A DNA stretch of 64,000 nucleotides from an uncultured Hungatella sp. (GTDB lineage Bacteria > Bacillota > Clostridia > Lachnospirales > Lachnospiraceae): the NCBI GenBank assembly GCA_947066955.1, contig CAMTAF010000004.1, positions 484-64,483 of the forward strand, read 5' to 3'. Both the position numbers and the translations under genes were made by a program. The notes under the pieces are model-generated. The model saw only the letters and a list, made by a program, of their open reading frames with translations. It was not told the DNA's origin and searched no databases. Position 1 is the stretch's first letter; each line of letters opens with the position of its first letter. Shown here piece after piece: positions 44,646-60,988 of the stretch.

Positions 44646-45953
44646 TTACTGCTGATTCTCAGCCTCCTCCTTGAGGAACTGGTTGTCCAGCATCTTGATA
44701 AACGGCATCCACAGAAGGAAACCAAAGGCAAAGGTAACAAACGTGATCACCACTGCCCACGGATTAAAGTTGGTAGCGATCAGCTGCTTTAAGAACGGCG
44801 GTGTGGTCCACGGAACATCATAGATGGGAATCGCCCCTGTAATTTTCATCAGCAGGTAAGCCAGTCCGGCCTGAAGGGGCTCGCTTAAAATCCACGGGAT
44901 AAAGATCGTGGGGTTCATCACTGCCGGAAGACCAAAGACAAAGGGCTCATGGATATTGAAAATAGCCGGGATCAGGATAGTCTTTTTCATGGCCTTGGCC
45001 CGCTGGGACTTGCCCAGAACGCACAGGGCCACGATCTCCGACAGCTTACAGTGGTTGGTGTACACACGGAAAGCGGCGGTCATAAGGAAGGGCAGGGCCG
45101 CGCCCGCGTTGTAGGCCTCCAAGTTCATAGCCATGGCAACCAGTGCCGCCGGCTGCCAGATGGGCGTTAAGATCAGGTTGGTTCCGTGCAGTCCGAAGAA
45201 CCACAGAACCTGGGCGATAAACAGCAGGAACATAAACACCCAGATATTGTTGGACAGGTTCAAAAACGGCTTTGTGATCAATGTGCTGATACACTCAGAC
45301 AAGGTTCCGTATGGCGTCAGCTGGAACAGCAGGCGGATCGCCATAAACAAAAGCACCGTAGCCCCCATGGGGATCATGGCCAGGAAAGGCTTCATCACAT
45401 TGGGCGGAACCGTGTCCGGCAGCTTGATGGTCAGGTTCTTGTGCTCCAGCCAGGCGAACACGGAGATAGACAGGATCGCTACGATCAGCGCCGGAAATAT
45501 CCCGCCGGCTCCTAAAACTCCCGTGTCAATGACGCCGGAGACCACTGTGGCGATCTTCTCCTCCCCCACAGCAACCTCTGTGGCTTTCTCGAAAGGAGTC
45601 ACCAGAAGAAAGCAGATCACCGCCGTGGTGATGCCGTAAAATTTGTCCACCTGCCTGCCCTCGCTGTAATAGTAGGCTGTACCCAAAAGAGCGTACAGAG
45701 CGATGATTCCCAGTGTGGCGGCATTGATGGGGCCGAAAAATGTCTTAAAGGCAGCGGACAGCGGCGGACAGAACTGATCCAGATACGGAAAGCTGCTTAG
45801 AATCAGCGCCACCGAGGCGATCATGGTGGCCGGAAGCGTGGACATCATGCCGTCCTTGATTCCGGAGATGACGATGTTATTGTTGAGCACTTCCGCCACA
45901 GGCGTCATGTATTTGTCCAATGCCGCCTCCAGCTTGTTCATAAACCCATTCAT
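44646..45953 (-). CDS. PTS Lac/Cel-family EIIC
   Basis: IKDGM, LPDTVPPNV, WFFGLHG, FNIHEPFVFGLP, PWTTP. Confidence 0.92.
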   Translation of the reverse strand: MNGFMNKLEAALDKYMTPVAEVLNNNIVISGIKDGMMSTLPATMIASVALILSSFPYLDQFCPPLSAAFKTFFGPINAATLGIIALYALLGTAYYYSEGRQVDKFYGITTAVICFLLVTPFEKATEVAVGEEKIATVVSGVIDTGVLGAGGIFPALIVAILSISVFAWLEHKNLTIKLPDTVPPNVMKPFLAMIPMGATVLLFMAIRLLFQLTPYGTLSECISTLITKPFLNLSNNIWVFMFLLFIAQVLWFFGLHGTNLILTPIWQPAALVAMAMNLEAYNAGAALPFLMTAAFRVYTNHCKLSEIVALCVLGKSQRAKAMKKTILIPAIFNIHEPFVFGLPAVMNPTIFIPWILSEPLQAGLAYLLMKITGAIPIYDVPWTTPPFLKQLIATNFNPWAVVITFVTFAFGFLLWMPFIKMLDNQFLKEEAENQQ

Positions 45954-46273
45954 TTGTTTTCCCTCCTGTAATTATCCTGTAATTCCTTGGCAAAAGCCAG
46001 GGCCTTCTCCCCGTTCATCTCGCTGTAAATGGACACCGGGATCACGTCTACGGGAATGTTTTTTGGCCCGCAGAGAGCCCTGGCCTTTTTCAGAGCCAGA
46101 CGGGACTGGGGGCCGAGAAGAGCCACATCCACGCCGTCCAGACATTTTTCCATATCCGACTCCGCGTAAGCCCTGATGTCTATGTCCTCCCCGCCCCTTG
46201 CCGCCGCCTCTCTCATGCGGTTTACCAGAAGGCTGGTGGACATTCCCGCCACACAGAACAATCTGATCTTCAT
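45950..46273 (-). CDS. PTS Lac/Cel-family EIIB
   Basis: LFCVAGMSTS, LLGPQ; ATG 46273. Confidence 0.9.
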   Translation of the reverse strand: MKIRLFCVAGMSTSLLVNRMREAAARGGEDIDIRAYAESDMEKCLDGVDVALLGPQSRLALKKARALCGPKNIPVDVIPVSIYSEMNGEKALAFAKELQDNYRRENK

Positions 46274-46590
46274 CTGGCTCTCTCCTCCTTCCTCCTGTAC
46301 AGCTCCACGATCTCCCCGGCTAAGTCCCGGACCGTGATGGCGCCCATGAGATGGTCCTGAGCATGGACCATGAGAAGGCTCACGCTGCCCTGCCCCTCCC
46401 GCAGATCCTCCTGGAGCAGATCGGTCTGGTCGCTGTGGGCGCTGGCCAGAGTCCGGCTGCTCTGCTCTAAGAGAACCGCCGCCCGGGCAAACTTCCCCTC
46501 CCTGGCAGCCTCGATGGCCTCCATGGCAGCGCACCTGGCGTCGCCTCCCTGGATCACCAGTTTCAGAATTCTCCGCTCCTCTTCACTCAT
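46270..46590 (-). CDS. PTS Lac/Cel-family EIIA
   Basis: GGDAR, AH..QT.LLQ, LMVHAQDHLM. Confidence 0.92.
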   Translation of the reverse strand: MSEEERRILKLVIQGGDARCAAMEAIEAAREGKFARAAVLLEQSSRTLASAHSDQTDLLQEDLREGQGSVSLLMVHAQDHLMGAITVRDLAGEIVELYRRKEERAR

Positions 46591-46759: not shown

Positions 46760-48652
46760 TTACTCTGCCTCAAAAAGCACCTTCAGAAGGGTCTCATATC
46801 TTCTGCTCCCGATGATTTCTCCCACCTTCTCCGGTGACAAAAGTACTCGGGAGGTGATCTCATAAAACTTCTGCACCCTCTCCTCCATGCTATCGGTGAG
46901 AGCCACCAGCACCACCAGCTGCACCTGGTTTCTGGACCATGTCACCGGCTCCTCTAAGACTGCCGCGGCCACAATATTCCGGTCCACCATGACCCTGGCC
47001 GGATGGGGGATCGCCACTAAGTTTCCATAGTCCGTGGCCCCCAGCTCCTCCCTCTCCAGGACAGAAGAGGCAAATTCCTTTGGCAGAGGATAATACCTTC
47101 GGATCTCCCGGCACATCTCCCGGATAACCTCCTCCCTGGTACTCCCTCTCACATGGGGAAAGAAAAACTCCTTCCGGTAAAACTCCAGAAGGAACTGCCT
47201 GTCCCCGTTCTCCAGGGTCCTCCTGGCCGCCAGCAGATCCCCGTACTCCAAAAAATCGTGGATCTCGATGACTGGAACCTGCACCTCCCTGTAGATGGGA
47301 ACCGTGGCAAAGACATAATCCACCTGGGTCAGATCAAAATCCTCCAGCTCGTACACATTGCACACAAACACCTGATCCAGATAATCCCCGAACTCCTTTT
47401 TCAGCTGATACAAGAGCATCTGGGAACTGGCACGGCCGCTGGCGCACACCAAAAGCACATTCTTTTTCTCGGTCCGGCTGCCTCGCTCCTCTAAGGCCAG
47501 GGCAAAAAGAAAAGCCAGAAATCCCACTTCCTCCTCCGGTATGTCCCTGCCGTAATACTTCTTCAGCACACCGCTTCCCTGGACAGCCACAGAGTAGGCG
47601 AGAAGATATTTCTGCTGGATCCCCGCCAGGAGAGGATTGTCGATCTCGATCCCGTATCTCATGCGGATATCCATAGACACCAGATGCTGGTTCAGCATCA
47701 TTCTCAAGTTCAGATTATCCCGAAACTCCATGTGAAAGGCCTGATACACGGATTCCAGCATATCCACCACCATGCGGTCGATCCGTTCCGAGATGACAAA
47801 ATTGCTCTTACCCGAGCCATGAATCCTCTTTCCTGCCAGAAAGATCCCCAGAAACCAGATCTCCGCCTCCCCTGCCGCAATCCCCCTCTCCTCCTGAAGC
47901 TTCTCCACGATCCGGGAGGCCAGGCGCCGTTCCTCCTGCCCCAGATCGCCGTGACACTCCTGCAGCTCCCGGATCACAAACCCTCTCTCCATCCGCCCCG
48001 CCGCCACATGGATATACTCCAAAATGCTCTCAAATGACATCTCCGAAAACCGGATATGTTCCTCCCGCATCTGCTCCAGCAAAAACCGCGCCATATCCTG
48101 ATCCTTGATCCTGCGCTTTCTCTCCTGTTCCGTGTACTGATCCTCCACCCTCTTCCGGTTTTCCATGATGCACCGCCGGATATCAAACTCTTTTCCCCGG
48201 ATCCGGACTCCGTAAGCCGGCTTTCTCTGGATCTCAATGTGAAATTTCCCAAGCCGGGCCTCCACCTGCTTCATCTCCCCGGACAAGGTGCTTCTTGATA
48301 TGTAGAGAAACTCACAGATATCGTCGAATTTAATATAATCCTCCCGGTTTAAGAGCATGGCCAGAAGATACTCAATCCGACCCGCCGGAGTGTCGGGAAG
48401 CCCCTTTTCCTCCCCCGCCTTCAGCTCCTCCAGCCATTGCCCAAACCGCCCCGGCTCCTCTGCCTGAATCCGGAAGCCCTGTCCCTTTTTGGAGATCAGC
48501 CGCCCGCCCCGGCTCTCGATCTCCGGCTTCATCTCCTTTAACCGAACCCTGACAGTCTTCTCACTGACCCCCCACAGCCGGGCCAGCTCTCCGGCTGTCC
48601 GAAACCCTTCTTCTGCCAGACACCGCAAAACCAGGATTTTCCCGTCCCCCAT
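46760..48652 (-). CDS. LicR/BglG-type PRD transcriptional regulator
   Basis: VSEKTVR HTH, ISRSTL, LVCASG EIIB, AIPH EIIA. Confidence 0.88.
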   Translation of the reverse strand: MGDGKILVLRCLAEEGFRTAGELARLWGVSEKTVRVRLKEMKPEIESRGGRLISKKGQGFRIQAEEPGRFGQWLEELKAGEEKGLPDTPAGRIEYLLAMLLNREDYIKFDDICEFLYISRSTLSGEMKQVEARLGKFHIEIQRKPAYGVRIRGKEFDIRRCIMENRKRVEDQYTEQERKRRIKDQDMARFLLEQMREEHIRFSEMSFESILEYIHVAAGRMERGFVIRELQECHGDLGQEERRLASRIVEKLQEERGIAAGEAEIWFLGIFLAGKRIHGSGKSNFVISERIDRMVVDMLESVYQAFHMEFRDNLNLRMMLNQHLVSMDIRMRYGIEIDNPLLAGIQQKYLLAYSVAVQGSGVLKKYYGRDIPEEEVGFLAFLFALALEERGSRTEKKNVLLVCASGRASSQMLLYQLKKEFGDYLDQVFVCNVYELEDFDLTQVDYVFATVPIYREVQVPVIEIHDFLEYGDLLAARRTLENGDRQFLLEFYRKEFFFPHVRGSTREEVIREMCREIRRYYPLPKEFASSVLEREELGATDYGNLVAIPHPARVMVDRNIVAAAVLEEPVTWSRNQVQLVVLVALTDSMEERVQKFYEITSRVLLSPEKVGEIIGSRRYETLLKVLFEAE

Positions 48653-48790
48653 CGCTTTCACCTCACGCCAGTCCGTGTTTCTTTGGTCTTCTGAAAATAC
48701 TATAGCAAATACGGAAATTTTCTGTTAGAATAAAAATATATGAATTAGAAATATTCTACGATACCATTCAGAAAAAAAAAGGAGGCCCCC

Positions 48791-49984
48791 ATGACACTCC
48801 CTGAAGCCTGCTCCTTTTTGCAGGACCTCACCCAGGTCCCCGCCACCCTGCTGTCCGGCGAGAGACAGCAGGCCCTGTTTTGTTCTGCCTACCGCTTCCA
48901 CCCTGTTCAGAACTACTTAAACCCCCATGCCCTGGAGTCCTTTCTGGCTCACTTAAGCCCCGGCCGGATCGTCCACCTCACCGATCCCCTGGGAATCCAT
49001 TTTTTCTTCACAACGGCCGACCATGTCCCTGTGGTTCTGGGGCCCTTCTGCACGGAACTTCTCACCGTGGCCGACTGCCACGCCATCTTCCGGGGCCTTG
49101 GCCCTCTCCGCCTTCCGGTCAACGACTACCTGGCCTACCGCAGCCCCTTTCCCGTCATCGAGGACAGGCAGGTCCTCCACCTGACCAGGTGCCTTCTAAA
49201 GAGCCTGGGCATTGCCTGCGACGATTGGGAAGTTCTGGCCCTGAACTGCCAGGCCTCCGACCCTCCTGATTCCGACGACCGGAAAATTTACCGGCCCTAC
49301 TCCGAGCTGGTGGTGGAGCGCTATGCCGCGGAGCAGCGGCTTATGGAAAATATCTCTCTGGGAAACCGGTTCGCCGCCATCGCCAACTGGCGGGATCTTC
49401 ACAATTACGTCGCCTACCGGAGAGACCCGAAAAATATCGGGTATACCATAGAAAACGCCAGACTGTCGGCCGCCATCACCAGAACCGTCATCCGCGTGGC
49501 GGCCATAAAAGCAGGGATTCCGGCTGTCCTAAACGACAAAATCTCCGGGGAGAGCGCCGCCATCATAAGAAACGCTTCCTCCATCGAGGAGATCAATAAA
49601 GAACACGAGCGGCTCATCAGCGAATACTGCCGGATCATCTACGACCACAGAACCATGGGCTACAGCGGCCTCATCTTGAGCGCCATCTACCATATGGAGC
49701 ACCACTATTCCCAGCCCGTCACCGTGGCCGCCCTGGCAAAAGAGCTGGAGGTCTCCCCCAACTATCTGACCAGCCGTTTCCACAGAGAAACCGGCCTGAC
49801 CCCCACGGCCCGCCTCACCCGGGTCCGCATGGGTCAGGCTGCCTGGAATCTGGCCAACACCAGGCTCTCCATCCGCCAGGTCAGCGAGCAGGTGGGGATC
49901 CTGGATTCCAACTATTTTGTGAAGCTGTTTAAGAAGGAATATGGGGAGACTCCCAGCAAGTACCGGGAGAGGATGGGGCTGTAG
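48791..49984 (+). CDS. AraC family transcriptional regulator
   Basis: C-terminal LAKELEVSPNYLTSRF...QVG..DSNYFVKLFKKEYGETPSKYR. Confidence 0.9.
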   Translation: MTLPEACSFLQDLTQVPATLLSGERQQALFCSAYRFHPVQNYLNPHALESFLAHLSPGRIVHLTDPLGIHFFFTTADHVPVVLGPFCTELLTVADCHAIFRGLGPLRLPVNDYLAYRSPFPVIEDRQVLHLTRCLLKSLGIACDDWEVLALNCQASDPPDSDDRKIYRPYSELVVERYAAEQRLMENISLGNRFAAIANWRDLHNYVAYRRDPKNIGYTIENARLSAAITRTVIRVAAIKAGIPAVLNDKISGESAAIIRNASSIEEINKEHERLISEYCRIIYDHRTMGYSGLILSAIYHMEHHYSQPVTVAALAKELEVSPNYLTSRFHRETGLTPTARLTRVRMGQAAWNLANTRLSIRQVSEQVGILDSNYFVKLFKKEYGETPSKYRERMGL

Positions 49985-50102
49985 ATCGGCATCTTGATAA
50001 AAGAAATATTTTGACTTGATATAATTCGGAGAAGTGCATATAATACAATTAGCTAAGTTAGTCAAAATGTTTGCATAAGAAATCATGATTGGAGGAATCG
50101 AT

Positions 50103-50345
50103 ATGACTCAGGTAAATATGTTGGAAGCGAAGACCGATTTATCAAAGCTGGTAAAGCTGCTTGAATCGAAACAAGAAGAGGTGATTTATCTGGCGAGAAA
50201 CGGGAAAGCAGTTGTTCAGATGACACTGATCCCAAAGAAACCTGTATGCAAGCGAATCGGCGTAGCAGAAGGACAGTTTAAGGTTCCAGATGAGTTTGAT
50301 AAATGGGATAAAGAAATTGAGGATATGTTCGGAGGAGAGGTATGA
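50103..50345 (+). CDS. Phd/YefM family antitoxin
   Basis: VNMLEAKTDLSKLV...LARNGKAVV; promoter TTGATA-17-TATAAT at 50016-50044. Confidence 0.85.
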   Translation: MTQVNMLEAKTDLSKLVKLLESKQEEVIYLARNGKAVVQMTLIPKKPVCKRIGVAEGQFKVPDEFDKWDKEIEDMFGGEV

Positions 50346-50746
50346 AGATCTTGTTGGACACATACATTCTTCTATGGGTGATTTCCAATGACATGAAACT
50401 GCCGGAAAAGGCAAGGAAATTGATTGAAAACGAGGAGAATGAAATATATTACAGTATTGTTTCTCTATGGGAAGTGGAGCTGAAAAGACTGGCGCATCCT
50501 GATGCAATGCCTGTCTCCGCGGAGCAACTGGCAGAATACTGCGATCGGTCAGGATTCCAAAGGATATTGATCAGAGAAAAACATATTTACGCTTTGGCGG
50601 GATTAAAACGGGATGAAAATGCCCCGCCGCACAAGGATCCATTTGACCGAATGCTGATTTGCCAGGCTTCTGCCGAAAATATGATGTTTATCACACATGA
50701 TTCACAGATACCAGGCTATAATGAGCCTTGTATTCTGGCCGTTTAG
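50342..50746 (+). CDS. VapC/PIN toxin
   Basis: ILLDTYILLW, SIVSLWEV, HKDPFDRMLICQA, ITHD; ATGA overlap with antitoxin. Confidence 0.88.
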   Translation: MKILLDTYILLWVISNDMKLPEKARKLIENEENEIYYSIVSLWEVELKRLAHPDAMPVSAEQLAEYCDRSGFQRILIREKHIYALAGLKRDENAPPHKDPFDRMLICQASAENMMFITHDSQIPGYNEPCILAV

Positions 50747-51170
50747 AGCCTCAAAGATGGGCATCTTTTTCCGTTTTTGGCCCAAAGCAATGGAGTAGGA
50801 TTGTAATCGCCCTGGTATTTCAGTGCGTGAAAGCCTTCTGGATGCCCCACGGCCGGTATTTTGCGTTCCTCTCCGCTTTCCGCCGGTATCCCAAACTGGC
50901 CGTTCTTTCCTGCTGCTGCGCCGCCGGATGGAGAAGCTGGACGGCGTGGAGGTTGGCATTGACCCCATGGGATGCGAGATCGATTTCCGCTATTTCGGGA
51001 TGGATTGGCCCAAAATGGAGAAATGGTATGTCTTTAGGGGGGAGGCGGAATAGGGGGCAGTCGGCCATTTCTTTCCCCGCCATTCATTTCTTTCCCCCAA
51101 AACTTTCTGTAGTATTATCCAAAAGGTTGTGATAAAATCATAGTATAAAAAAGACCGGGGAGGTGTTGCT

Positions 51171-52334
51171 GTGGCCGGGGTCAGTGTTCATGTAAAACCG
51201 GAAATCATCAGCTGGATCCTAAATACTGTTCAGTTTGAAGAAATCACAGGATCCGCCATGGAATTGTTACGTAAATGGCAGACTGGGGAAAAAATTCCTA
51301 CCTTTAATCAAATTGAAGATATGAGCAAAAAAACAATGATTCCTTTTGGCTACTTTTTTCTTGAAAAGCCGCCAGTGGAGAAATTCCCACTTGTTGAATA
51401 TCGCACAATCGGCAGTACCTCTGCCTTAGAGCCAAGCAGAAATCTTATTGATACCATTGATTTAATGACGGATGTTCAGGAGTGGATGGTTGACTATGTG
51501 ACCACAAATGGGCAGGAGAAACTAGAGTATGTGGGAAGTGCGGCAGGTGTCACAGATATCCTGACCATTGTAAAAGATATCAGGAAACGATTGGATATCA
51601 ATGTCTCCTGGTGTGCTGACAGGCAAAGCGCAAAAGAAGCTTTTCGCTTTATTAGGGAAAAAATAGAGAATATTCATATCCTGGTTATGATGAGCGGGAT
51701 CGTCGGGAATAACAGCCGAAGAAAGCTGAATGTGGACGAATTCAGGGCCTTTACTCTTGTAAATCCGTTCACACCATTAATTTTTATTAATTCCTGTGAC
51801 AGTGATACAGGAAAATTATTTTCTATTGTCCACGAACTGACCCATGTATGGATAGGAGAAAACAGTCTTTATAATGCCAAGAACAACGATTATTTTATAG
51901 ATCATGGAACAGAAAGGTTTTGCAACGCGGTCGCGGCAGAGCTACTAGTTCCTACAGAACTCTTTGAAGAGAAATGGAAAAATAGCGGCAGCACAACTGC
52001 CGAAAAAATTGAAAAAACAGCAAAAATTTTCAGATGCAGCAGGCTGGTGGTGGCACGTAAAGCTTTCGATTGCGGAAAAATATCCAAAGTTGTCTATGAC
52101 CAGACTATAAAAGAGCTGACAATAAAATACAAAGAATGGCAGGAGCGCCAAAAAAGAAATAAGGATTCCGGCGGAGATTATTATCGAAATCTGGCCAGTA
52201 AAATAGATAGAAATTTTGTCACCGCATTGGCAAGAAGCATCTATGAGGGAAGAACACAATATACAGAAGCATACCGGCTTACGAATACAAATCGCAAGAC
52301 TTTTGAGAGGCTTTTGGAGGCAATTAGCGACTAA
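51171..52334 (+). CDS. HTH plus ImmA/IrrE (Peptidase_M78) metallo-endopeptidase
   Basis: N-terminal HTH (KWQTGEKIPTFNQI, IPFGYFF), EFRAF, IFIN, HELTH (HExxH), ERFCNAVAAELL; AT-rich. Confidence 0.9.
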   Translation: MAGVSVHVKPEIISWILNTVQFEEITGSAMELLRKWQTGEKIPTFNQIEDMSKKTMIPFGYFFLEKPPVEKFPLVEYRTIGSTSALEPSRNLIDTIDLMTDVQEWMVDYVTTNGQEKLEYVGSAAGVTDILTIVKDIRKRLDINVSWCADRQSAKEAFRFIREKIENIHILVMMSGIVGNNSRRKLNVDEFRAFTLVNPFTPLIFINSCDSDTGKLFSIVHELTHVWIGENSLYNAKNNDYFIDHGTERFCNAVAAELLVPTELFEEKWKNSGSTTAEKIEKTAKIFRCSRLVVARKAFDCGKISKVVYDQTIKELTIKYKEWQERQKRNKDSGGDYYRNLASKIDRNFVTALARSIYEGRTQYTEAYRLTNTNRKTFERLLEAISD

Positions 52335-52746
52335 TTTAGAGCTGGATTCCGTATATCTTTTAGATGTGGCTAAGTATGAAATAGCGAAAGGTGAGGATAA
52401 ACTGTCTCTGTGGTTTGACTCACTTTCTCATGTAAATACAATTGACAGAAGGAATTCAGAAATTATTGCCAAATACAAAGAGATATTAAGTTTTTTGCAG
52501 AATAGCCCATTGTATTCAGAGAAAGCGCTAAGAAATTGGGCAAACATAAATGTAGCTGACCCATGGCTCATTGCCGCGTCAAGCGCATTGGGATATACAC
52601 TGGTTACCTTTGAAACCTCTGCGGGAACGATCTCTGTAAATAGTCCAAGCGGTAAACCCAAGATACCAGATATAGCGTTGAAGTTTAATGTAAAATGTGT
52701 AAATTTGTTCTATTTTATGCGGAAAATGGGGATTGTATGGGCATAA
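52306..52746 (+). pseudogene. DUF4411 (PIN-like) gene lacking its 5' end
   Basis: GFWRQL...LLDVAKYEI..GED...ADPWLIA...VTFE...KIPD..; no N-terminal L(I)DAN strand; the upstream ATG (52216) gives an unrelated sequence overlapping the protease. Confidence 0.6.
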
Positions 52747-53042
52747 AAAACCTATCGGACGTGAATACCGTCTGTTCCCTGCCCGCCTCCCCCCCGTTCT
52801 GTTCCCCAAATCTTCCGAATTTCATTATTCAACCTGTTGCGAAACCCCCAAATACATATTATAATTACTATAAAGCTCTATGGCCGCAGGCGGTCTGAAT
52901 CCGGGGATACTTTATGGCTCGGAACACGCTCGCTCCGGGGGAGTCGGCGCCCGCCATAGTTCACGCGCGGCGGTGTATCTGCTGCCGGGCGCATAGGGTA
53001 TTATGAAGGTCTGCCAAGGGGCAGACGCCACAAGAAGGAGAG

Positions 53043-53804
53043 ATGTTTATGAGGGGGAAAGTATATGCGCTGTCAGATCTTCACGGACATTATGACGCCC
53101 TCTGCGCCATGCTGAAAAAAATAAACTTCAGTGATGATGACACGCTGTATATATTGGGGGACTGCAACGATAGAGGCGAGAAAGCCATGGAGATCTATCA
53201 TTTTATCCAGCAGCATCAGGACAATGTCTTTTTGTTAAAGGGAAACCACGAGCTGATGATGCGGGATTTTCTCATAAAAAATGACTGGACGTGTCCCCAG
53301 GGAAGGATCTGGCAGTGCAACGGCGGCGACAAGACTATGGAACAGATGGATCAGTTCCTGAAAAAGGGATGCGAAAACAAAAAAGACTTTGAGTGCAAAA
53401 GGACGGAATTTAGAGGCTGGCTTATCAAATATGTCAACTCCCTGCCCAGCTACATTGAAGTGAATGTGGGCGGTCAGGCCCTGGTGCTCATCCATGCGGG
53501 GATTGACCCGGAACGCCCTCTTCACGAACAGGACGAAGAGATCTGCGCCTGGATCCGGGAATGGTTTTACATGTCACCGGCCCTCAAGGGCAAGACCATC
53601 GTGTTCGGCCACACACCTCTGTGCCATCTGAACGGCGGCGAGAATTTCGATGTGTGGTTCGACCCTTACTATCACGATAAGATCGGCATTGACGGCGGTC
53701 TTGGGCCATTTGACAACGGGCAGCTCAACTGCCTCTGTCTCAATGACATGTCAGTGACAGTGATTAAGAAAAAAGATCTGGAAGTGAAAAAGGAGGCTGT
53801 GTGA
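53043..53804 (+). CDS. PPP-family (PrpA/lambda-type) metallophosphoesterase
   Basis: SDLHG, GDCNDRG, GNHE, IHAG, FGHT, IDGG. Confidence 0.9.
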   Translation: MFMRGKVYALSDLHGHYDALCAMLKKINFSDDDTLYILGDCNDRGEKAMEIYHFIQQHQDNVFLLKGNHELMMRDFLIKNDWTCPQGRIWQCNGGDKTMEQMDQFLKKGCENKKDFECKRTEFRGWLIKYVNSLPSYIEVNVGGQALVLIHAGIDPERPLHEQDEEICAWIREWFYMSPALKGKTIVFGHTPLCHLNGGENFDVWFDPYYHDKIGIDGGLGPFDNGQLNCLCLNDMSVTVIKKKDLEVKKEAV

Positions 53805-53805
53805 T

Positions 53806-54567
53806 ATGGATGTGCTTTTGGCAAGGATTCTCAAGTATTTAAACGGAGCCCTGTTCTACGACGACTACTACAAATTCTGCACCTACATCGTGGACCATTA
53901 TCTGGAGATGGAATCCGTGACCAAGGAGAGAATCCTCTCTGAGACCGGAATTGATGAGAAGAATCTGGATGATTTTGTCCGCCGTTTAGGCCATGATTTT
54001 GACTGGGAGACCTTTCACAGGACTTTTGTCCAGCACCACCTCACCCGCTTAGATCAGATACGGGGGCGGATGGTAGGACTGCGGGCCGCTGACCTTGTGA
54101 AGGATATGAAAAAAGATATGACCGATGAGGAGATGTTAAACTATATCTCCGTGATCTGTGAAGAGATTGAGTTCCACAAGCGGATTGTCATCGTGGGGGC
54201 TCTCTACCCCATGTCCATTGCCGTGGAGTTCCAGACAGACCTGATCACTTTTGGGAAAAATGTGATTCAGTTCCACACCTTCGACCCCACTATGATGTTC
54301 ACGGAAGACGACATGCTGATCTTCATCTCCGCTACAGGAAGAGCCATGAAGGGCTTCCTCAAGGACAGGGGCAACTTAAACCCAGACGCGGCCACAAGCC
54401 TTCTGATCACTCAGAATCCCATTTACACCAGGCCCGAACACAGAATCAGCAGTTTTGTCCTGCGGCTTCCCGGAAGATATGACGGGCTGGACTTCAATCA
54501 TCAGCTGATGCAGATCTTTGACCTGATCCGCATTCAGTATTATCAAAAGTATTATTTGGGGATGTAA
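53806..54567 (+). CDS. Divergent RpiR-like protein (HTH plus SIS-like)
   Basis: YKFCTYIVDH...ETGIDEKNLDDFVRRLG resembles the RpiR HTH; LIFISATGR resembles the SIS loop. Confidence 0.55.
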   Translation: MDVLLARILKYLNGALFYDDYYKFCTYIVDHYLEMESVTKERILSETGIDEKNLDDFVRRLGHDFDWETFHRTFVQHHLTRLDQIRGRMVGLRAADLVKDMKKDMTDEEMLNYISVICEEIEFHKRIVIVGALYPMSIAVEFQTDLITFGKNVIQFHTFDPTMMFTEDDMLIFISATGRAMKGFLKDRGNLNPDAATSLLITQNPIYTRPEHRISSFVLRLPGRYDGLDFNHQLMQIFDLIRIQYYQKYYLGM

Positions 54568-54600
54568 GGATTACAAATATGAAAACCAGGGGGGTATTAT

Positions 54601-56034
54601 ATGGACCAAGCATCAGATAACACTTTGATTCAACAGTTCAGACAGTGGGTGCTGACTCAGACCAGTTCTCATTATAAGCTCTACATAAATGAAAAAGACA
54701 GCAACGTGATTGTGATCGAAACCAGCTACTGCCGGGGGGAGGTCACCTTCTTTCCCATGGATATTATTCAGTTAAGCGTTCTGAACCTGGTAACGGACCG
54801 CCATGAATTCTATCTTCATTTTCAGATGCACACCTTAGAACATGCCATGAAGCTGTTTCGGGAGATGCTGGAGAGTGTAAAGGAGCTGTCTGTCAAGCCG
54901 CCTGTCCGCATTCTTCTGACCTGCACCAGCGGCCTCACTACCGGATTTTTCGCCCAGAAGCTTAATGAGTCCGCTGAACTTCTGTCCCTGAATTACGAAT
55001 TCACCGCAGTCTCCTACGGCAACCTGTACCATGTGGCCAGCCAGTATGATATCATCCTTCTGGCGCCTCAGATCTCCTATATCTACGAGACTGCCAAAAA
55101 GATCCTGCACAACAAGAAGGTTTATCAGATTCCGCCCAAGGTCTTTGCCACCTATGATGTCAAGACGGTATTTGCGGACTTAGAGCCTCTTCTTTCGCCG
55201 CGCAAGCATTCCGGACGCCCCTATATCCGCCAGCTTCCCCTGAAAAAACAGGTGAAGTCCCATGTAAAGATCTTAACCATCGCCCTCATCCGGGAAGACG
55301 ACCATTTTCTCCTGTCCTCCAGGATCTATACGGAGAACAACGGAATCATCTTTGACGAGGTCAGCATCAAGCCCCAGATCAACATGGACGATGTGTGCGA
55401 TGTATGCGACACGGCCTTTGCCATCTATCCCGAGATCAATACCGTAGGCCTGTCCATGCCAGGGATCATTGATGAGGGACGTCTCACCCTTCTCGCCCAG
55501 GGGTTTGACGAGAGCAATATCCTGGACTCTATGTCAAAAAGGTATTCCCGAAAATTTGTCCTGGGCAATGACGCCAACTGCATTGCTGTGGGCTACTATT
55601 CTTCCCAGGATCAGTACCACTCCATCTCCGCCCTGTTCCAGCCCTTTGTGGCATCCACAGGCGGCCTTGGCAGCATCCACAACGGCCAGCTGATCGAGGG
55701 CTACCGCCATGTGGCCGGGGAGGTCCAGTTCCTCCCCATCAACAGCGAGATCAGCAACAGCAATCTCATGCCTTCCCTGAGGATGACCCCGGAGGGCACT
55801 CTGTCCTGGGCCGCCCAGACCATTGCCTCCATTATCAGCATCTTAGGGCCGGAAGTCATCCTTCTGTCCTGCCGCCTTATTGTTCAGATCGACGGCCTTA
55901 TACAAGAACTGGAAAAATATGTGCCGGGAAAATATATCCCGAAGATCGTCCAGATCGACAGCGTAAAGGATTACATGCTCCTGGGCCTGATGATTCTCTG
56001 TACAGAGGCTATCGAGGAACGGGAGGAGTGCTGA
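54601..56034 (+). CDS. Fusion: unknown N-domain, PTS EIIB (Lac/Cel type), ROK domain
   Basis: ILLTCTSGLTT...IILLAPQISY; VGLSMPGII, LGNDANCIAVG, GLGSIHNGQLIEG...AGEV. Confidence 0.7.
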   Translation: MDQASDNTLIQQFRQWVLTQTSSHYKLYINEKDSNVIVIETSYCRGEVTFFPMDIIQLSVLNLVTDRHEFYLHFQMHTLEHAMKLFREMLESVKELSVKPPVRILLTCTSGLTTGFFAQKLNESAELLSLNYEFTAVSYGNLYHVASQYDIILLAPQISYIYETAKKILHNKKVYQIPPKVFATYDVKTVFADLEPLLSPRKHSGRPYIRQLPLKKQVKSHVKILTIALIREDDHFLLSSRIYTENNGIIFDEVSIKPQINMDDVCDVCDTAFAIYPEINTVGLSMPGIIDEGRLTLLAQGFDESNILDSMSKRYSRKFVLGNDANCIAVGYYSSQDQYHSISALFQPFVASTGGLGSIHNGQLIEGYRHVAGEVQFLPINSEISNSNLMPSLRMTPEGTLSWAAQTIASIISILGPEVILLSCRLIVQIDGLIQELEKYVPGKYIPKIVQIDSVKDYMLLGLMILCTEAIEEREEC

Positions 56035-56086: not shown

Positions 56087-56689
56087 CTACCGCAAGTAGC
56101 GTTTGACTCTTCCCAGCATCCGCACCTTTTCCGCATAGTCAAACAACCGCTCTATCTGCCTTTCTCCGCTTTTGCGGTAGTTTTCTATGATCAGGTCAAA
56201 GAGATCATCGCCGATGCTGTCCTTAAAACGGATACAGTCACAGACGCTCCTGTCCAAGTCGTACACCCGGTACATCCCTAAAGGAGTTGTCACCTTCTTA
56301 ACGCTGTCTTCAAAATAACTGTCCCCAAAATAGTGCCTGCATGTGGGGAAATTCACTTTCATCTTGCTCCGGTCACTTCTCCTTGTGGCTACGGACAGGC
56401 GTTCCGGCTCCACATCAATCAGTCCCAGATAGAAGCAGGCGCTGTCCGCGCAGATTACGGCGCCGGGATTGGTGATACACACTTCAAGCGCCTTGTAGTC
56501 TCCAGGCTTCTCATGCCTCTCATCCACAAACCAATAATGTCCATGAGATACCTTCTCCAGCATTCCACTTTGCACAAACGCGCCGATCTGACGGTTCGTC
56601 ACCTTCCCTTGCAGCAGTTCCGCAGTTGTAATATACCCTGAGTATTGTTTTGATAAATTTTCCAGTCTCTTCACAGTACTTTCCAGCAT
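56087..56689 (-). CDS. Type IV TA AbiEi-family antitoxin domain protein (orphan)
   Basis: GYITTAEL...LEKVSHGHY wHTH, VICADSAC.Y.GL, RVYDLDRSVCD. Confidence 0.75.
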   Translation of the reverse strand: MLESTVKRLENLSKQYSGYITTAELLQGKVTNRQIGAFVQSGMLEKVSHGHYWFVDERHEKPGDYKALEVCITNPGAVICADSACFYLGLIDVEPERLSVATRRSDRSKMKVNFPTCRHYFGDSYFEDSVKKVTTPLGMYRVYDLDRSVCDCIRFKDSIGDDLFDLIIENYRKSGERQIERLFDYAEKVRMLGRVKRYLR

Positions 56690-56879: not shown

Positions 56880-58259
56880 ATGAAACTGTTTGGAAAAAAG
56901 CCGGCGCCCCGAACCAGCTCCAGGCCTGTCAGCCGTGAATCTGAACCCAGCGCTCCGGCAAATGTCTCCCGGAAAAATTCCTGCTATGAATATCTGGATG
57001 GAGTCATGTCCAACCCTGACCGGCGCAACAGCGGAACCGCCCTTAAGATTTATATTGAAAATTTTAAACGCCTCAACGAGGTTTTCGGCTACGACTACTG
57101 CGAAGAGCTTCTCCAGCAGATCCTCACCTATTTAAGGCAGGTGACGGGAAAAAAGCTTCACCAGTTCATCGGTGTGGAATATATCGTTATCCTGGAGCAC
57201 ACCACAAGCGTTCAGGCACAGGCTGTCTGCCAGGAGATCCTGGACCGTTTTGAGCATGTGTGGACCGTCGGGGAGATCGATTGTGTCTGCTCTGTTCAGA
57301 TCGGCATCTGCGGCTTTCCCACCTATGCCTCCACAACGGACCAGCTTCTGGAATGTTTGGACACCGCTGTGTCAAAGGCTTCCGAGTACGGCCCCAACCA
57401 GATGGTGGTCTACAACAGCACCCTCCGGGAACATATGGCCAGACGCCACGTTATTGCCATGTATTTAAATGAGGCCTTTGACCGCCAGGAGATCGAGGTC
57501 CGCTACCGCCCCACCTACAATATCGAGAAGAAAAAGTTTTCCCGCGCGGAACTGTACCTGCGCATCTTTGTCAAAGGCCTGGGGTTTGTAGGTGCGCCGG
57601 AGTTCACCCCTGTAGCCGAAGATTCCGGACAGATCCGCACCCTGGAATACTTTGCCTTAGAGCACTTGGGAGCCTGCATCGCCCAGCTTCTGGAGCGGGG
57701 TATTGAATTCGAATCCGTGAGCACCCGGATCTCCCCCATGATGCTTCTCCAGGGGGATCTGCTGGAAAAGGTCAAGGCCATCTTGAGCCGCTATCAGATT
57801 CCCGCAGGCAAGCTGGCCCTGGAATTCTCCGAGAATGCTTACCTCACCTCTCAGCTGAACATGACCATGACTCTTCAAAGCCTGTCGGAGATGGGTGTGG
57901 AGGTGATCTTAAATGACTTTGGCTCCGGCTTCTCCAGCATCTCCAGCCTTCTGGAGCTTCCCGTAGACACGGTGAAGTTCGAGCGCCTGTTTATCTGGCA
58001 GCTGGAGAGCAATCCCAAAGCCCGCATCATGGTAGACAGCCTGACCCAGATGGCCAAGAACTTAGGGCTTAAGATGATCGCCGAGGGAGTTGAGACCCAG
58101 CATCAGCTGAAAGTGCTCAACCGGGCAGACTGCATCTACCAGCAGGGCTTCTACTATGCGCCTACCATGGAAAAAGACCTCCTTTTCCAGCTTATGGACT
58201 GCTCCATGGAAGAGTCCAAGGCTGTTCTGGAGAAAGCACGGGAAGCTGTTCGAAGATAA
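56880..58259 (+). CDS. GGDEF-EAL protein with degenerate motifs
   Basis: IGVEY instead of GGDEF; ELYLR, NDFGSG, VKFE, AEGVET, QQGFYY. Confidence 0.85.
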   Translation: MKLFGKKPAPRTSSRPVSRESEPSAPANVSRKNSCYEYLDGVMSNPDRRNSGTALKIYIENFKRLNEVFGYDYCEELLQQILTYLRQVTGKKLHQFIGVEYIVILEHTTSVQAQAVCQEILDRFEHVWTVGEIDCVCSVQIGICGFPTYASTTDQLLECLDTAVSKASEYGPNQMVVYNSTLREHMARRHVIAMYLNEAFDRQEIEVRYRPTYNIEKKKFSRAELYLRIFVKGLGFVGAPEFTPVAEDSGQIRTLEYFALEHLGACIAQLLERGIEFESVSTRISPMMLLQGDLLEKVKAILSRYQIPAGKLALEFSENAYLTSQLNMTMTLQSLSEMGVEVILNDFGSGFSSISSLLELPVDTVKFERLFIWQLESNPKARIMVDSLTQMAKNLGLKMIAEGVETQHQLKVLNRADCIYQQGFYYAPTMEKDLLFQLMDCSMEESKAVLEKAREAVRR

Positions 58260-58636: not shown

Positions 58637-59521
58637 TTAATTTCCGCCATATTTAAAGAAATAGGACAGCGCGCCCAAAAGATTGGCGTCATTTCCCCTC
58701 TCACAGGCCACGATCACAGGCATGAGATACTCCTGCTGCTGCCCCTTCACCAGCTCTCTGTAGGTTCGGTTGATCTCCTCCATAATCCAGGGGTTGGCGC
58801 TGATCCCCCCTCCTATGGCGATGATCTCCGGGTCATAGGCAAACTGAAGGATAAGACAGCCCTCTGCCATGTAGTGAAGGAACTCGTCCACCCTCCTGGC
58901 AGCTTCCTCGTCTCCTCCTCTGGCCAGCTCCACCAGCTCCTTTCCATCCACTGTCCGGTGCTGTTCCTCGGAATATCTCTGGGCTTCCTTCTCCAGAGTA
59001 AAGCTGCTCCAGCACAAAAGGTTTTCGTCTCTCTTTCCGCCCATCAGGAAGTTTCCGATCTCCGCCTTATTCATGGTAGTCCCCGGATACAGCTCCCCGT
59101 TCTCGATGACAGCGCCGCCTACGCCGCTTCCCACGATGGCAAAAGCGATATTCTTATACTTTCTCCCCACGCCCAGCCATGCCTCTCCCAGGGCAGCCGC
59201 GTTGGCGTCATTGACCATGGTGACCTTTTTCCCGCCGCACCGCTGGGAGATCAGCTGTTTCAGAGGACACTTGTGGAGATGCTCCACCGCGCTGATGCCG
59301 TAGATCACGCCCTCCTCACTGTGCACCTCCCCGGGAAAGCTCCCCGCGATCCCCTCTATGGGCGCCGACCTCTCATAGATCGCCTGTACCTGATCCAAAA
59401 ATTTCTCCAGGGTTTTCCCCACAGCCTCCTTTCCCGCTGACAGGATCTCCCCTTCCCCGCTGCACACAGCGTACTTTACACTGGTTCCGCCAACGTCCAG
59501 ACACAGATATCGTTTCTCCAT
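58637..59521 (-). CDS. ROK family sugar kinase
   Basis: LDVGGTSVK, GSFPG, VNDANAAALGEAWLG, GSGVGG, IGGGIS. Confidence 0.9.
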   Translation of the reverse strand: MEKRYLCLDVGGTSVKYAVCSGEGEILSAGKEAVGKTLEKFLDQVQAIYERSAPIEGIAGSFPGEVHSEEGVIYGISAVEHLHKCPLKQLISQRCGGKKVTMVNDANAAALGEAWLGVGRKYKNIAFAIVGSGVGGAVIENGELYPGTTMNKAEIGNFLMGGKRDENLLCWSSFTLEKEAQRYSEEQHRTVDGKELVELARGGDEEAARRVDEFLHYMAEGCLILQFAYDPEIIAIGGGISANPWIMEEINRTYRELVKGQQQEYLMPVIVACERGNDANLLGALSYFFKYGGN

Positions 59522-59662: not shown

Positions 59663-60988
59663 CTATTTCTCATCCTCATTCTGTAGTTCCAAAATCCTGT
59701 CAAAATCATCATTAATGACTTTTGAAATCTCATCGATCCTTTCATTTTGAATCATATGGATTTCGCTGTCCATACAATTTTCAATAGTACCATCTTTGAC
59801 AAACCAAGAATCAAATTTATTCCTGTCAATCCAAAGAGATTCCGGAATAATTGCGTTTACTTCTTTTACGTTCCGTAACTGAACGGTTCGCGCATATAAC
59901 AAATTATTCAATGTCCCTAAGACATATGGGCTGTGGGTTGTCAATACGACCGAATGCCCGCAATTATTAACCAGAGCGATCAACTCTGTAATGTACTTCT
60001 GAGATTCGGGAAATAGATGTGACTCCGGTTCCTCAATAATAAATAAAATCTGTCTATCCCTCAGCAGATAATAAAATAATAAATTCAAAATCCATACACA
60101 TTCCTGCTGTCCGGAAGAGGAAAAATTAAGTTTCACATATTTTCCGTCATCAAGAACAATCTGGTCCTCGCCATTGCTATAGCGATACGTGCCTCGCAGG
60201 ATCAATTTTATTAGCTTTAATGCCTGACCAGTCACTTCCGACGGCAAAGACGTTTTCCTGGAGTAAAACGCAAGAAGTCCCCGCAGCCCGTCTGAAAATT
60301 CCGGCTTAATACGCAATATCAGTTCAAGATAGTCTTTTGTACAGCTGTCTAAAGAACGCTTTTGAGAGTCATCCATCTTTGCGTAAATATAGCTCAGTTG
60401 TTGTGACAATAATGTTATCATACTGCGCCCCGCGGGAATATACACCGCCTGGCAGTGGTCGTCAAACATTTTGTAAAGTTCCGCCTTAAAGCGCTTTAAC
60501 TCCTCCTCCGGTATGCCTAATGGAGTGATAGAAAAACAATTATTTTTTCTCCTCAAAAATCCGTTCAGTTCTTTACTAAAAGTGAGCCATATATAATTAG
60601 GCGTTTGATATTTGTTGTCAGTCTTAAGTGAAACCCTCACCACACAAGTTTCTGAGAACTTATATTCAATATACATCTCATCCGGCATGCCCCATGAAGA
60701 GCCAAAGGTATTCAAAAATTTCTCCCGCAAGTGATTCTCTAATATTTTTTTCAATTCGCTTTTTCGTTCCGAATCAAACGTTTCCTGAAATTCGGCGGCA
60801 GAAATCTTATTTAGGGCCTGTCCCTTAGCAAGCTCCACAATATCGTCCTTTATCGTCCTAAAGTAATAAATCACCTTGGCAATCGTACTTTTCCCTGATG
60901 CCTGAAATCCTGTTAATGTCATAAAAGGAGAACATTCTAATTCACAATGCTCAATGGGACCAAGTTTGTTAACTATCAGCTTATGCAC
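59663..60988 (-). CDS. AAA_15/AAA_21-type ABC-like ATPase, AT-rich, no intact partner
   Basis: GFQASGKS, SSGQQE, IEEPESHLFP, TTHSPY. Confidence 0.85.
   Translation of the reverse strand: MHKLIVNKLGPIEHCELECSPFMTLTGFQASGKSTIAKVIYYFRTIKDDIVELAKGQALNKISAAEFQETFDSERKSELKKILENHLREKFLNTFGSSWGMPDEMYIEYKFSETCVVRVSLKTDNKYQTPNYIWLTFSKELNGFLRRKNNCFSITPLGIPEEELKRFKAELYKMFDDHCQAVYIPAGRSMITLLSQQLSYIYAKMDDSQKRSLDSCTKDYLELILRIKPEFSDGLRGLLAFYSRKTSLPSEVTGQALKLIKLILRGTYRYSNGEDQIVLDDGKYVKLNFSSSGQQECVWILNLLFYYLLRDRQILFIIEEPESHLFPESQKYITELIALVNNCGHSVVLTTHSPYVLGTLNNLLYARTVQLRNVKEVNAIIPESLWIDRNKFDSWFVKDGTIENCMDSEIHMIQNERIDEISKVINDDFDRILELQNEDEK

Follow-up and report, generated by a model that had tools for sequence, protein, structure and literature searches.

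A phosphatase, an RpiR-like regulator and an N-domain-EIIB-ROK fusion in an uncultured Hungatella: a candidate transporter-independent regulatory module linked to the phosphotransferase system

What does an EIIB domain of the phosphoenolpyruvate (PEP)-dependent phosphotransferase system (PTS) do when it is fused to a ROK fold and encoded directly after a phosphatase gene and a regulator gene? The question is raised by three genes at 53043-56034 of a 64,000-nucleotide (nt) stretch of DNA from an uncultured Hungatella sp. (NCBI GenBank assembly GCA_947066955.1, contig CAMTAF010000004.1, positions 484 to 64,483 of the forward strand), called the window below. We suggest that these genes encode a transporter-independent, PTS-linked regulatory module, in which a phosphorylated EIIB sensor would be reset by the phosphatase and read out by an RpiR-like regulator; we put this proposal at slightly below an even chance. 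Comparative analysis links the three families functionally, since at least eight different gene orders bring them together, they tend to be present in the same genomes and no EIIC is dedicated to them.

Three open reading frames (ORFs) follow one another on the plus strand at 53043-53804, 53806-54567 and 54601-56034, with gaps of 1 nt and 33 nt. The first-pass annotation, made from the letters alone, had described three tightly spaced co-directional genes here, encoding a PPP phosphatase with all metal motifs, a divergent protein with helix-turn-helix (HTH) and SIS domains, and a 477-amino-acid (aa) fusion of an N-terminal domain, an EIIB domain retaining the phospho-Cys loop and a ROK domain without the HTH; this observation is confirmed by the analyses that follow, with the corrections given below. 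No plus-strand terminator was found inside the unit 53043-56034. The best match to a sigma-70-type promoter in the region (TTGCGA-17 nt-TATAAT, 10/12; 52837..52865, plus strand) forms the block GTTGCGAA...CATATTATAAT, which is the sole conserved block 5' of the phosphatase gene in an alignment of six relatives. The three genes are predicted to form one operon, because the gaps are short, an internal plus-strand terminator is missing and the promoter is conserved in relatives.

The first gene (53043..53804, plus strand) encodes a PPP-family metallophosphatase resembling lambda phosphatase and PrpA/PrpB, as assigned by Pfam, motifs and profile. Its true start is probably the ATG at 53049, preferred because of a better Shine-Dalgarno spacing and because the orthologues begin there. 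The protein matches Pfam Metallophos with 52 bits (cut-off 21.5), and the PPP motifs DxH, GDxxDRG, GNHE, H and GH are invariant among 14 orthologues (D12/H14, G39-D40-x2-D43-R44-G45, G67-N68-H69-E70, H151 and G189-H190). By profile, the nearest solved relative is the lambda Ser/Thr phosphatase 1g5b (E 8.5e-15), and ApaH comes next. The scores against the NCBIfam equivalog models for PrpA, PrpB and ApaH (41-53 bits) are far below the cut-offs of 176-332, and the family has conserved blocks of its own (NGG.KT, DKIGIDGGLG and GQLNC.CLN).

The second gene (53806..54567, plus strand), beginning 1 nt past the phosphatase stop codon, is assigned as a divergent MurR/RpiR-type regulator with HTH and SIS domains on the basis of a profile and an AlphaFold2 (AF2) model. 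The protein stays under the Pfam thresholds (SIS 13.6 bits against a cut-off of 25, E=0.059; HTH_6 not reported), yet both the profile and the predicted fold support the MurR/RpiR two-domain layout. A profile built from 24 sequences matches MurR/RpiR chains over HTH and SIS (8tx9, E 1.3e-5, 8txl and 4ivn; residues 19-205), the AF2 model (predicted local distance difference test, pLDDT, 92) matches the full-length folds of NanR, RccR and MurR, and some homologues carry precomputed PF01380/PF01418 matches. In the phosphosugar-type loop ISATGR (residues 174-179), whose equivalence to the canonical SIS loop was judged by eye, S175, G178 and R179 are invariant and T177 is kept in at least 90% of the sequences.

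The third gene encodes the fusion, for which the AF2 model is confident and multi-domain (pLDDT 88; predicted template modelling score, pTM, 0.85). Residues 1-98 (54601..54894, plus strand) form the N-domain, predicted by AF2 as a helix, five strands and a helix, with a motif F70-Y71-L72-H73 that is invariant in the family alignments. The N-domain has no Pfam match and its sequence profile finds no PDB match; in the Foldseek search with the whole fusion the match list was filled by ROK folds. Residues 99-195 (54895..55185, plus strand) are a Lac/Cel-type EIIB domain (PF02302, 36.5 bits, cut-off 23.6), and the family profile matches CelA 2l2q (E 8.9e-13) and ChbB 1h9c (E 1.1e-11). The phospho-acceptor loop C108-T-S-G-L-T-T (Cys codon 54922-54924, plus strand) was placed by alignment to ChbB, with Cys108 on the phospho-Cys10 of that protein. 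The Cys is invariant in two alignments of the family, and both this Cys and His73 of the N-domain are kept in essentially all of about 117 non-fragment representatives, one of which has Ser in place of the Cys.

Residues 215-477 (55243..56034, plus strand) were recognized as a ROK-like domain by PF00480 (38.3 bits, cut-off 22.9, covering residues 277-376 only), by motif alignment and by Foldseek matches to ROK kinases and repressors (E 5e-12 and weaker). The winged HTH found at the N-terminus of ROK repressors is absent, and the new domain and EIIB occupy that end of the protein. The DxGGT phosphate-1 motif is missing (family consensus at this place KILxIxxIRNxxR), as are the GGG adenosine motif (consensus PExIxLxCxLI) and the zinc cysteines, no Cys being conserved after AGE; in the ExGH sugar motif Glu E374 is kept and the His is replaced (QF/QY). 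N323-D324-x-N326 (NDxN, with the catalytic-base Asp) and G373-E374 are invariant in 40 diverse sequences, and so are G355 and G357. The canonical ROK kinase encoded in the same window at 58637-59521 has LDVGGT and IGGGIS, unlike the fusion. Having lost two of the three ATP-binding motifs, the domain is classed from its sequence as a pseudokinase, which may still bind sugar. One outcome that the first-pass annotation had set against its own proposal, namely that the fusion is just a sugar kinase, was checked in its ATP-dependent form: since its ATP motifs are lost, the protein does not belong with the ordinary ATP-dependent sugar kinases.

The distribution of the N-domain shows what is kept with it. 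In a full HMMER search of 1.84 billion representatives the N-domain was detected in 378 representative clusters, N-terminal to EIIB in all but one odd match. The proteins fall into two length groups, of about 195-260 aa (N-domain and EIIB) and about 450-500 aa (with the ROK-like part added). An EIIC homologue was found within the flanks (about 6-7 kb) of only 4 of the 63 N-domain loci, and the flanks of the module hold housekeeping genes (histidine synthesis, ClpB, NAD synthase and shikimate dehydrogenase).

The conservation of the neighbourhood, which the first-pass annotation had proposed as a check, supports linkage of the families. The five nearest genomes of the locus search, with fusions 76-92% identical, have exactly the order phosphatase, regulator, fusion. 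The same order recurs with a fusion only 30% identical (locus L087). For the RpiR-like protein, a single-sequence locus search gave three close relatives only, and an alignment was used as the query. Other arrangements are fusion, phosphatase, regulator (L067, L068); a fusion divergent from phosphatase and regulator (L073, Holdemanella); a phosphatase divergent from two N-domain-EIIB genes that are followed by a regulator (L116, L118 and L120, Beduini); N-domain-EIIB, regulator (L124); N-domain-EIIB divergent from phosphatase and regulator (L135, Massilimicrobiota); regulator, CapA-like metallophosphatase, fusion (L138); and fusion, LysR, regulator, N-domain-EIIB (L017). For a systematic count, the surroundings of 60 phosphatase orthologues, taken from as many Erysipelotrichales genomes, were compared. 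An RpiR-like gene stands immediately 3' of the phosphatase gene in 42 of these loci, where the gap is mostly -3 or 0 nt and ranges from -60 to +57 nt; 31 loci have an N-domain(-EIIB) gene as the divergent neighbour, at a distance of 46-613 nt, and 58 have at least one of these two partners.

Genome counts agree with the gene contexts. Among 151 Erysipelotrichales genomes the N-domain was detected in 79 and the phosphatase (orthologues at E <= 1e-50) in 69; the two coincide in 67 genomes, which leaves 2 with only the phosphatase and 12 with only the N-domain. Because genomes that are related do not count as independent, we take these counts as support, not as proof. Across 150 further genera of the family to which the window belongs, the N-domain and the RpiR-like subfamily were both looked for and not found, and the phosphatase was detected in 11 of them as distant relatives only (103-137 bits, compared with 459 for the gene of the window). 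This suggests that the three families were acquired or retained together in the genus of the window, because within that bacterial family they are restricted to this genus and are shared with a different order. The conserved core is the phosphatase, the RpiR-like regulator and the N-domain-EIIB protein, with the ROK-like part optional. Thus the earlier proposal of the trio as a functional set stood as far as the linkage of the three families is concerned, and needed correction for the ROK domain, which is not a part of the core.

It had also been stated that no EIIC or EIIA is nearby, and this did not survive for the window, where the Lac/Cel-family genes for EIIC (44646-45953), an ordinary EIIB of 107 aa (45950-46273) and EIIA (46270-46590) and a PRD regulator gene (46760-48661) are located, though in a separate operon on the minus strand. 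The EIIA-EIIB-EIIC genes are 6.5-8.4 kb upstream of the trio, divergently oriented and not conserved with it; an AraC gene (48791-49984) and a low-GC island lie between the PRD regulator gene and the trio. In two relatives (L001, L003) the PRD regulator gene directly adjoins the phosphatase gene of the trio, and in three other relatives it does not. Given the rarity of EIIC near the N-domain loci, the term transporter-less is a fair one for the N-domain-EIIB family, though not for this window. The genome encodes EI and four Lac/Cel-type EIIA proteins, and EIIA(Cel) is present in 76 of the 79 N-domain-positive Erysipelotrichales genomes; phosphorylation of Cys108 is therefore feasible. The same count leaves the idea of the N-domain as an EIIA substitute unsupported. 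An apparent N-terminal extension on the EIIB ORF 45950-46534, considered as a further N-domain, was rejected, since it arises only from reading the frame from a GTG farther upstream; the true gene encodes the 107-aa EIIB.

The module that we propose builds on the domain identities, the catalytic and acceptor residues kept by selection, the loss of the ATP motifs, the linkage and co-distribution of the families and the lack of a dedicated EIIC. We infer that Cys108 is phosphorylated from PEP via EI, HPr and a Lac/Cel-type EIIA, all encoded in the genome. Its phosphorylation state would mirror the PTS flux and, in this genus, a sugar bound by the ROK-like domain, which, with no ATP site, would add sugar sensing. 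The PPP enzyme would strip the phosphoryl group and so reset the sensor; the phospho-protein is its likeliest substrate, given how strictly a lambda-type enzyme is partnered with the N-domain-EIIB family. The state of the sensor would be relayed, presumably by contact, to the RpiR-like regulator, whose SIS domain may bind a phosphosugar too, and the regulator would set transcription of a regulon including its own operon; the RpiR-type gene is the obvious candidate for the output because it is translationally coupled to the phosphatase gene.

Several observations weigh against the proposed sensor circuit. Sister species keep the phosphatase-regulator pair and have the fusion on another contig (L055/L056 versus L009/L023), which by itself would count against the module, an impression reversed by the wider sample of loci. 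About 35 of the 49 full EIIB-ROK fusion loci stand among housekeeping genes, apart from phosphatase and regulator, and shared ancestry explains a part of the co-occurrence in genomes. We know of no PPP enzyme that hydrolyses phospho-cysteine. Genes of other RpiR-like paralogues neighbour those of Cof-type HAD sugar phosphatases and of a NUDIX hydrolase, as would suit a phosphatase acting on a small molecule.

The unlinked fusions and the split loci of the sister species would be explained if there were no functional unit at all, the three genes being neighbours by descent only and the fusion having an unrelated role; we consider this the least probable explanation, since lineages far apart in evolution show the linkage again and again, in at least eight arrangements, and the families are jointly restricted within the family of the window. 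Nor is much chance left for an ordinary transport EIIB with an N-terminal extension, serving Lac/Cel EIIC permeases encoded elsewhere, with the regulator and the phosphatase in local regulation of sugar use. The EIIB domain matches ChbB/CelA well, a GH1 phospho-beta-glucosidase gene precedes one of the standalone copies (L134) and the genomes have many Lac/Cel PTS genes, but EIIC is rarely close to the N-domain loci, the flanks are of the housekeeping type, and transport EIIBs are characterized neither by a fused ROK pseudokinase nor by so strict an association with a PPP phosphatase. A more attractive role for the small-molecule substrate is a phosphosugar-stress module, which on our analysis is unlikely, although not far-fetched: the RpiR-like SIS protein would sense an accumulating sugar phosphate and de-repress its own operon, the PPP enzyme would hydrolyse this or a related small phosphoester, and the soluble EIIB would serve as a decoy draining phosphoryl groups from EIIA and throttling PTS uptake. 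Known phosphatases of this kind, including those of sppRA and glcR-phoC, are HAD enzymes, and the phosphatase here is nearest to the lambda protein phosphatase; the tight tie to N-domain-EIIB (67 of the 69 phosphatase-positive genomes, 31 of the 60 loci divergently adjacent) would not be expected for a general sugar phosphatase. On the other side are the translationally coupled bicistron of regulator and phosphatase in 42 of the 60 loci, the conserved loop ISATGR with the fold match to the phosphosugar-binding regulators NanR, MurR and RccR, the RpiR-like paralogues whose neighbours include genes for a nucleoside phosphorylase, a NUDIX hydrolase and Cof-type HAD sugar phosphatases (L094, L124), once together with EIIB and N-domain-EIIB genes, and the precedents sppRA and glcR-phoC (PMC13454231).

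The retained residues of the ROK-like domain allow one more explanation, a PEP-dependent cytoplasmic phosphorylation of sugar, in which the phosphoryl group would pass from phospho-Cys108 to a sugar held by the ROK domain, with Asp324 as the base and the ROK domain in place of EIIC, the product being the effector of the RpiR-like protein. We find it improbable. It accords with the invariance of N323, D324, N326 and G373-E374 in spite of the loss of the phosphate-1 and adenosine motifs, with the invariant EIIB Cys, with the confident multi-domain model and with the lack of an associated EIIC, and DhaK/L/M is a precedent of a soluble PTS-dependent kinase. It is opposed by the usual partner of the phosphatase and the regulator, which is N-domain-EIIB without the ROK domain, by the loss of the sugar-binding His and the zinc site, and by the sugar-contact residues, which are kept in non-catalytic ROK repressors as well. 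An equally doubtful form of this idea makes the fusion a soluble Enzyme II, a PEP-dependent sugar kinase receiving the phosphoryl group from the fused EIIB or by a relay through His73, with the PPP enzyme as a dedicated phospho-Cys/phospho-His phosphatase that resets it.

Further features of the locus and its relatives were detected. A GC-rich leader insert of about 150 nt (52880..53025, plus strand), located between the promoter and the ribosome-binding site, is specific to the window and missing from 5/5 aligned relatives. It has no Rfam match and folds no better than shuffled sequence (z = -1.2), and two partial copies of about 50 nt (80-82% identity) are present on contigs C13 and C149 of the same genome; the insert may be a small repeat element. 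A riboswitch or another leader RNA 5' of the operon was rejected on the absent Rfam match, the unremarkable fold and the uniqueness of the insert. No operator motif common to all lineages was evident by eye 5' of the phosphatase gene.

Additional N-domain proteins are encoded in the genome of the window. A standalone N-domain-EIIB protein (P0125, about 205-219 aa) is encoded between the genes of a flavoprotein reductase and an AAA_15-type ATPase, and a third copy appears split into frames of 100 aa and 135 aa; the sites are G000:C3:36963-37529 (L051:1396-2055) and G000:C7:33135-33679 (L052). In the representative library, one very long protein, P0285 (2081 aa), has three partial N-domain-like stretches, of which the N-terminal one was examined and is repetitive; this may be an artefact or an unrelated repeat protein.

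The contexts of the fusion elsewhere are diverse. In 14 Erysipelotrichaceae loci (L015, L018-L029, L034, L043) the fusion gene is followed by a co-directional gene for a 142-aa P-loop protein, which matches the BREX-3 BrxF model NF033453 (78 bits, cut-off 50) with no BREX context; its neighbours encode an rRNA methylase (Pfam-confirmed) and, by eye, radical SAM-like and VanY-like peptidase ORFs. In Thomasclavelia/Coprobacillaceae (L035, L047) a fusion paralogue directly follows hprK (HPr kinase, Pfam-confirmed) and an lgt-like gene (by eye), and we regard this gene neighbourhood as a second, independent hint at a connection to PTS/HPr. Copies of the fusion are broken into pieces in L046 and L048. 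In Massilimicrobiota timonensis (L138, G001:C1:1846000-1859000) a second fusion copy follows genes for an RpiR-like protein and PGA_cap (CapA-like), a member of the calcineurin-like superfamily, and here another metallophosphatase may stand in for the PPP enzyme.

RpiR-like paralogues occur in tandem pairs (L094, L089, L093, L097, L100, L102, L133, L124), with pyrimidine-nucleoside phosphorylase, Cof-type HAD phosphatases, NUDIX hydrolase and short-chain dehydrogenase/reductase as neighbours, and the block in L124 also holds an EIIB gene and an N-domain-EIIB gene. In the window itself, the low-GC island upstream of the trio (50085-52746, GC 0.42-0.45) encodes a Phd/YefM-PIN toxin-antitoxin pair, an unassigned 134-aa ORF and an M78 (ImmA/IrrE)-DUF4411 pair. 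Downstream of the trio on the minus strand there is an AbiEi-like antitoxin-type protein (56087-56689), which is below the Pfam cut-off and conserved in four relatives, and an AAA_15/AAA_21 ATPase (59663-60988), with a GGDEF-EAL protein (56880-58259) and the canonical ROK kinase encoded between them.

PTS proteins are the main sugar-supply sensing device of Firmicutes, with HPr/CcpA, PRD regulators, Mlc-EIIB and the targets of EIIA as the known read-outs. The proposed module, if true, would add a further PTS read-out, in which a soluble EIIB family with an N-domain not described before works with an RpiR-type regulator and with a lambda-type phosphatase of its own. The N-domain family is widespread in gut Erysipelotrichales, where 79 of the 151 genomes have it, in up to ten copies; in the family of the window, one genus from the mouse gut has it as well. 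If the phospho-protein is the substrate of the phosphatase, this would be a rare enzymatic off step in the PTS phosphorelay; if the ROK-like domain takes the phosphoryl group for a bound sugar, the fusion would be a new kind of Enzyme II. The analysis also offers a functional lead on three families whose annotation has not gone beyond ROK family protein, hypothetical / RpiR and metallophosphoesterase.

In the papers searched on EIIB-ROK fusions, on RpiR with EIIB and phosphatase and on phospho-cysteine dephosphorylation we found no description of this system, in line with the remark in the first-pass annotation that it knew of no described system of this composition. The Foldseek matches of the fusion include Mlc-EIIB(Glc) of Escherichia coli (PDB 3bp8), Mlc (1z6r) and MecR2 (4ija). 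Like the module, the Mlc-EIIB(Glc) complex combines a ROK-fold regulator with a PTS EIIB whose phosphorylation reports transport. In that complex a glucose-type EIIB, which belongs to a membrane permease, and Mlc are two separate chains bound to each other, and Mlc has its own HTH and zinc site, whereas the EIIB of the module is Lac/Cel-type, soluble and fused to ROK, DNA binding is assigned to a separate RpiR-type protein and a phosphatase is included. MecR2 of Staphylococcus aureus is a ROK-fold protein that has lost the kinase activity and acts by protein contact with a repressor; unlike the fusion, it keeps the vestige of a winged helix at its N-terminus, lacks an EIIB domain and is not linked to the PTS.

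The PRD regulators with built-in EIIB/EIIA (MtlR, LicR and ManR type, represented in the window at 46760-48661) likewise make regulatory use of a PTS-phosphorylatable EIIB-type domain. Each of them joins Mga-type HTH and PRD domains in one polypeptide, controls the PTS operon next to its gene and has no phosphatase partner, whereas the module has no PRD and has an RpiR-type regulator, a new N-domain and housekeeping flanks. DhaK/DhaL/DhaM resemble the proposed module in cytoplasmic PTS phosphoryl transfer without EIIC, an EIIA(Man)-like domain passing the phosphoryl group to a bound ADP cofactor, but involve no EIIB(Cel), ROK fold, RpiR regulator or PPP phosphatase. Lambda phosphatase and PrpA/PrpB share all PPP metal and catalytic motifs and a similar size with the first gene product, which differs by its family's own conserved blocks, a fixed genomic partnership and sub-equivalog scores. 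The two-gene form of regulator and phosphatase is shared with sppRA of Streptococcus mutans and glcR-phoC of Bacillus subtilis, autoregulated bicistrons of a phosphosugar-responsive regulator and a phosphatase (PMC13454231); their phosphatases are hexose-phosphate phosphohydrolases, their order is regulator then phosphatase and they have no EIIB-type protein, while the enzyme of the module is a lambda-type PPP. Taken together, each of the nearest known systems shares one aspect with the module and none the whole composition: the ROK-EIIB pairing with Mlc, the regulatory EIIB with the PRD regulators, the regulator-phosphatase pair with sppRA and glcR-phoC, the proposed transfer without EIIC with DhaKLM and the predicted loss of ROK kinase activity with MecR2.

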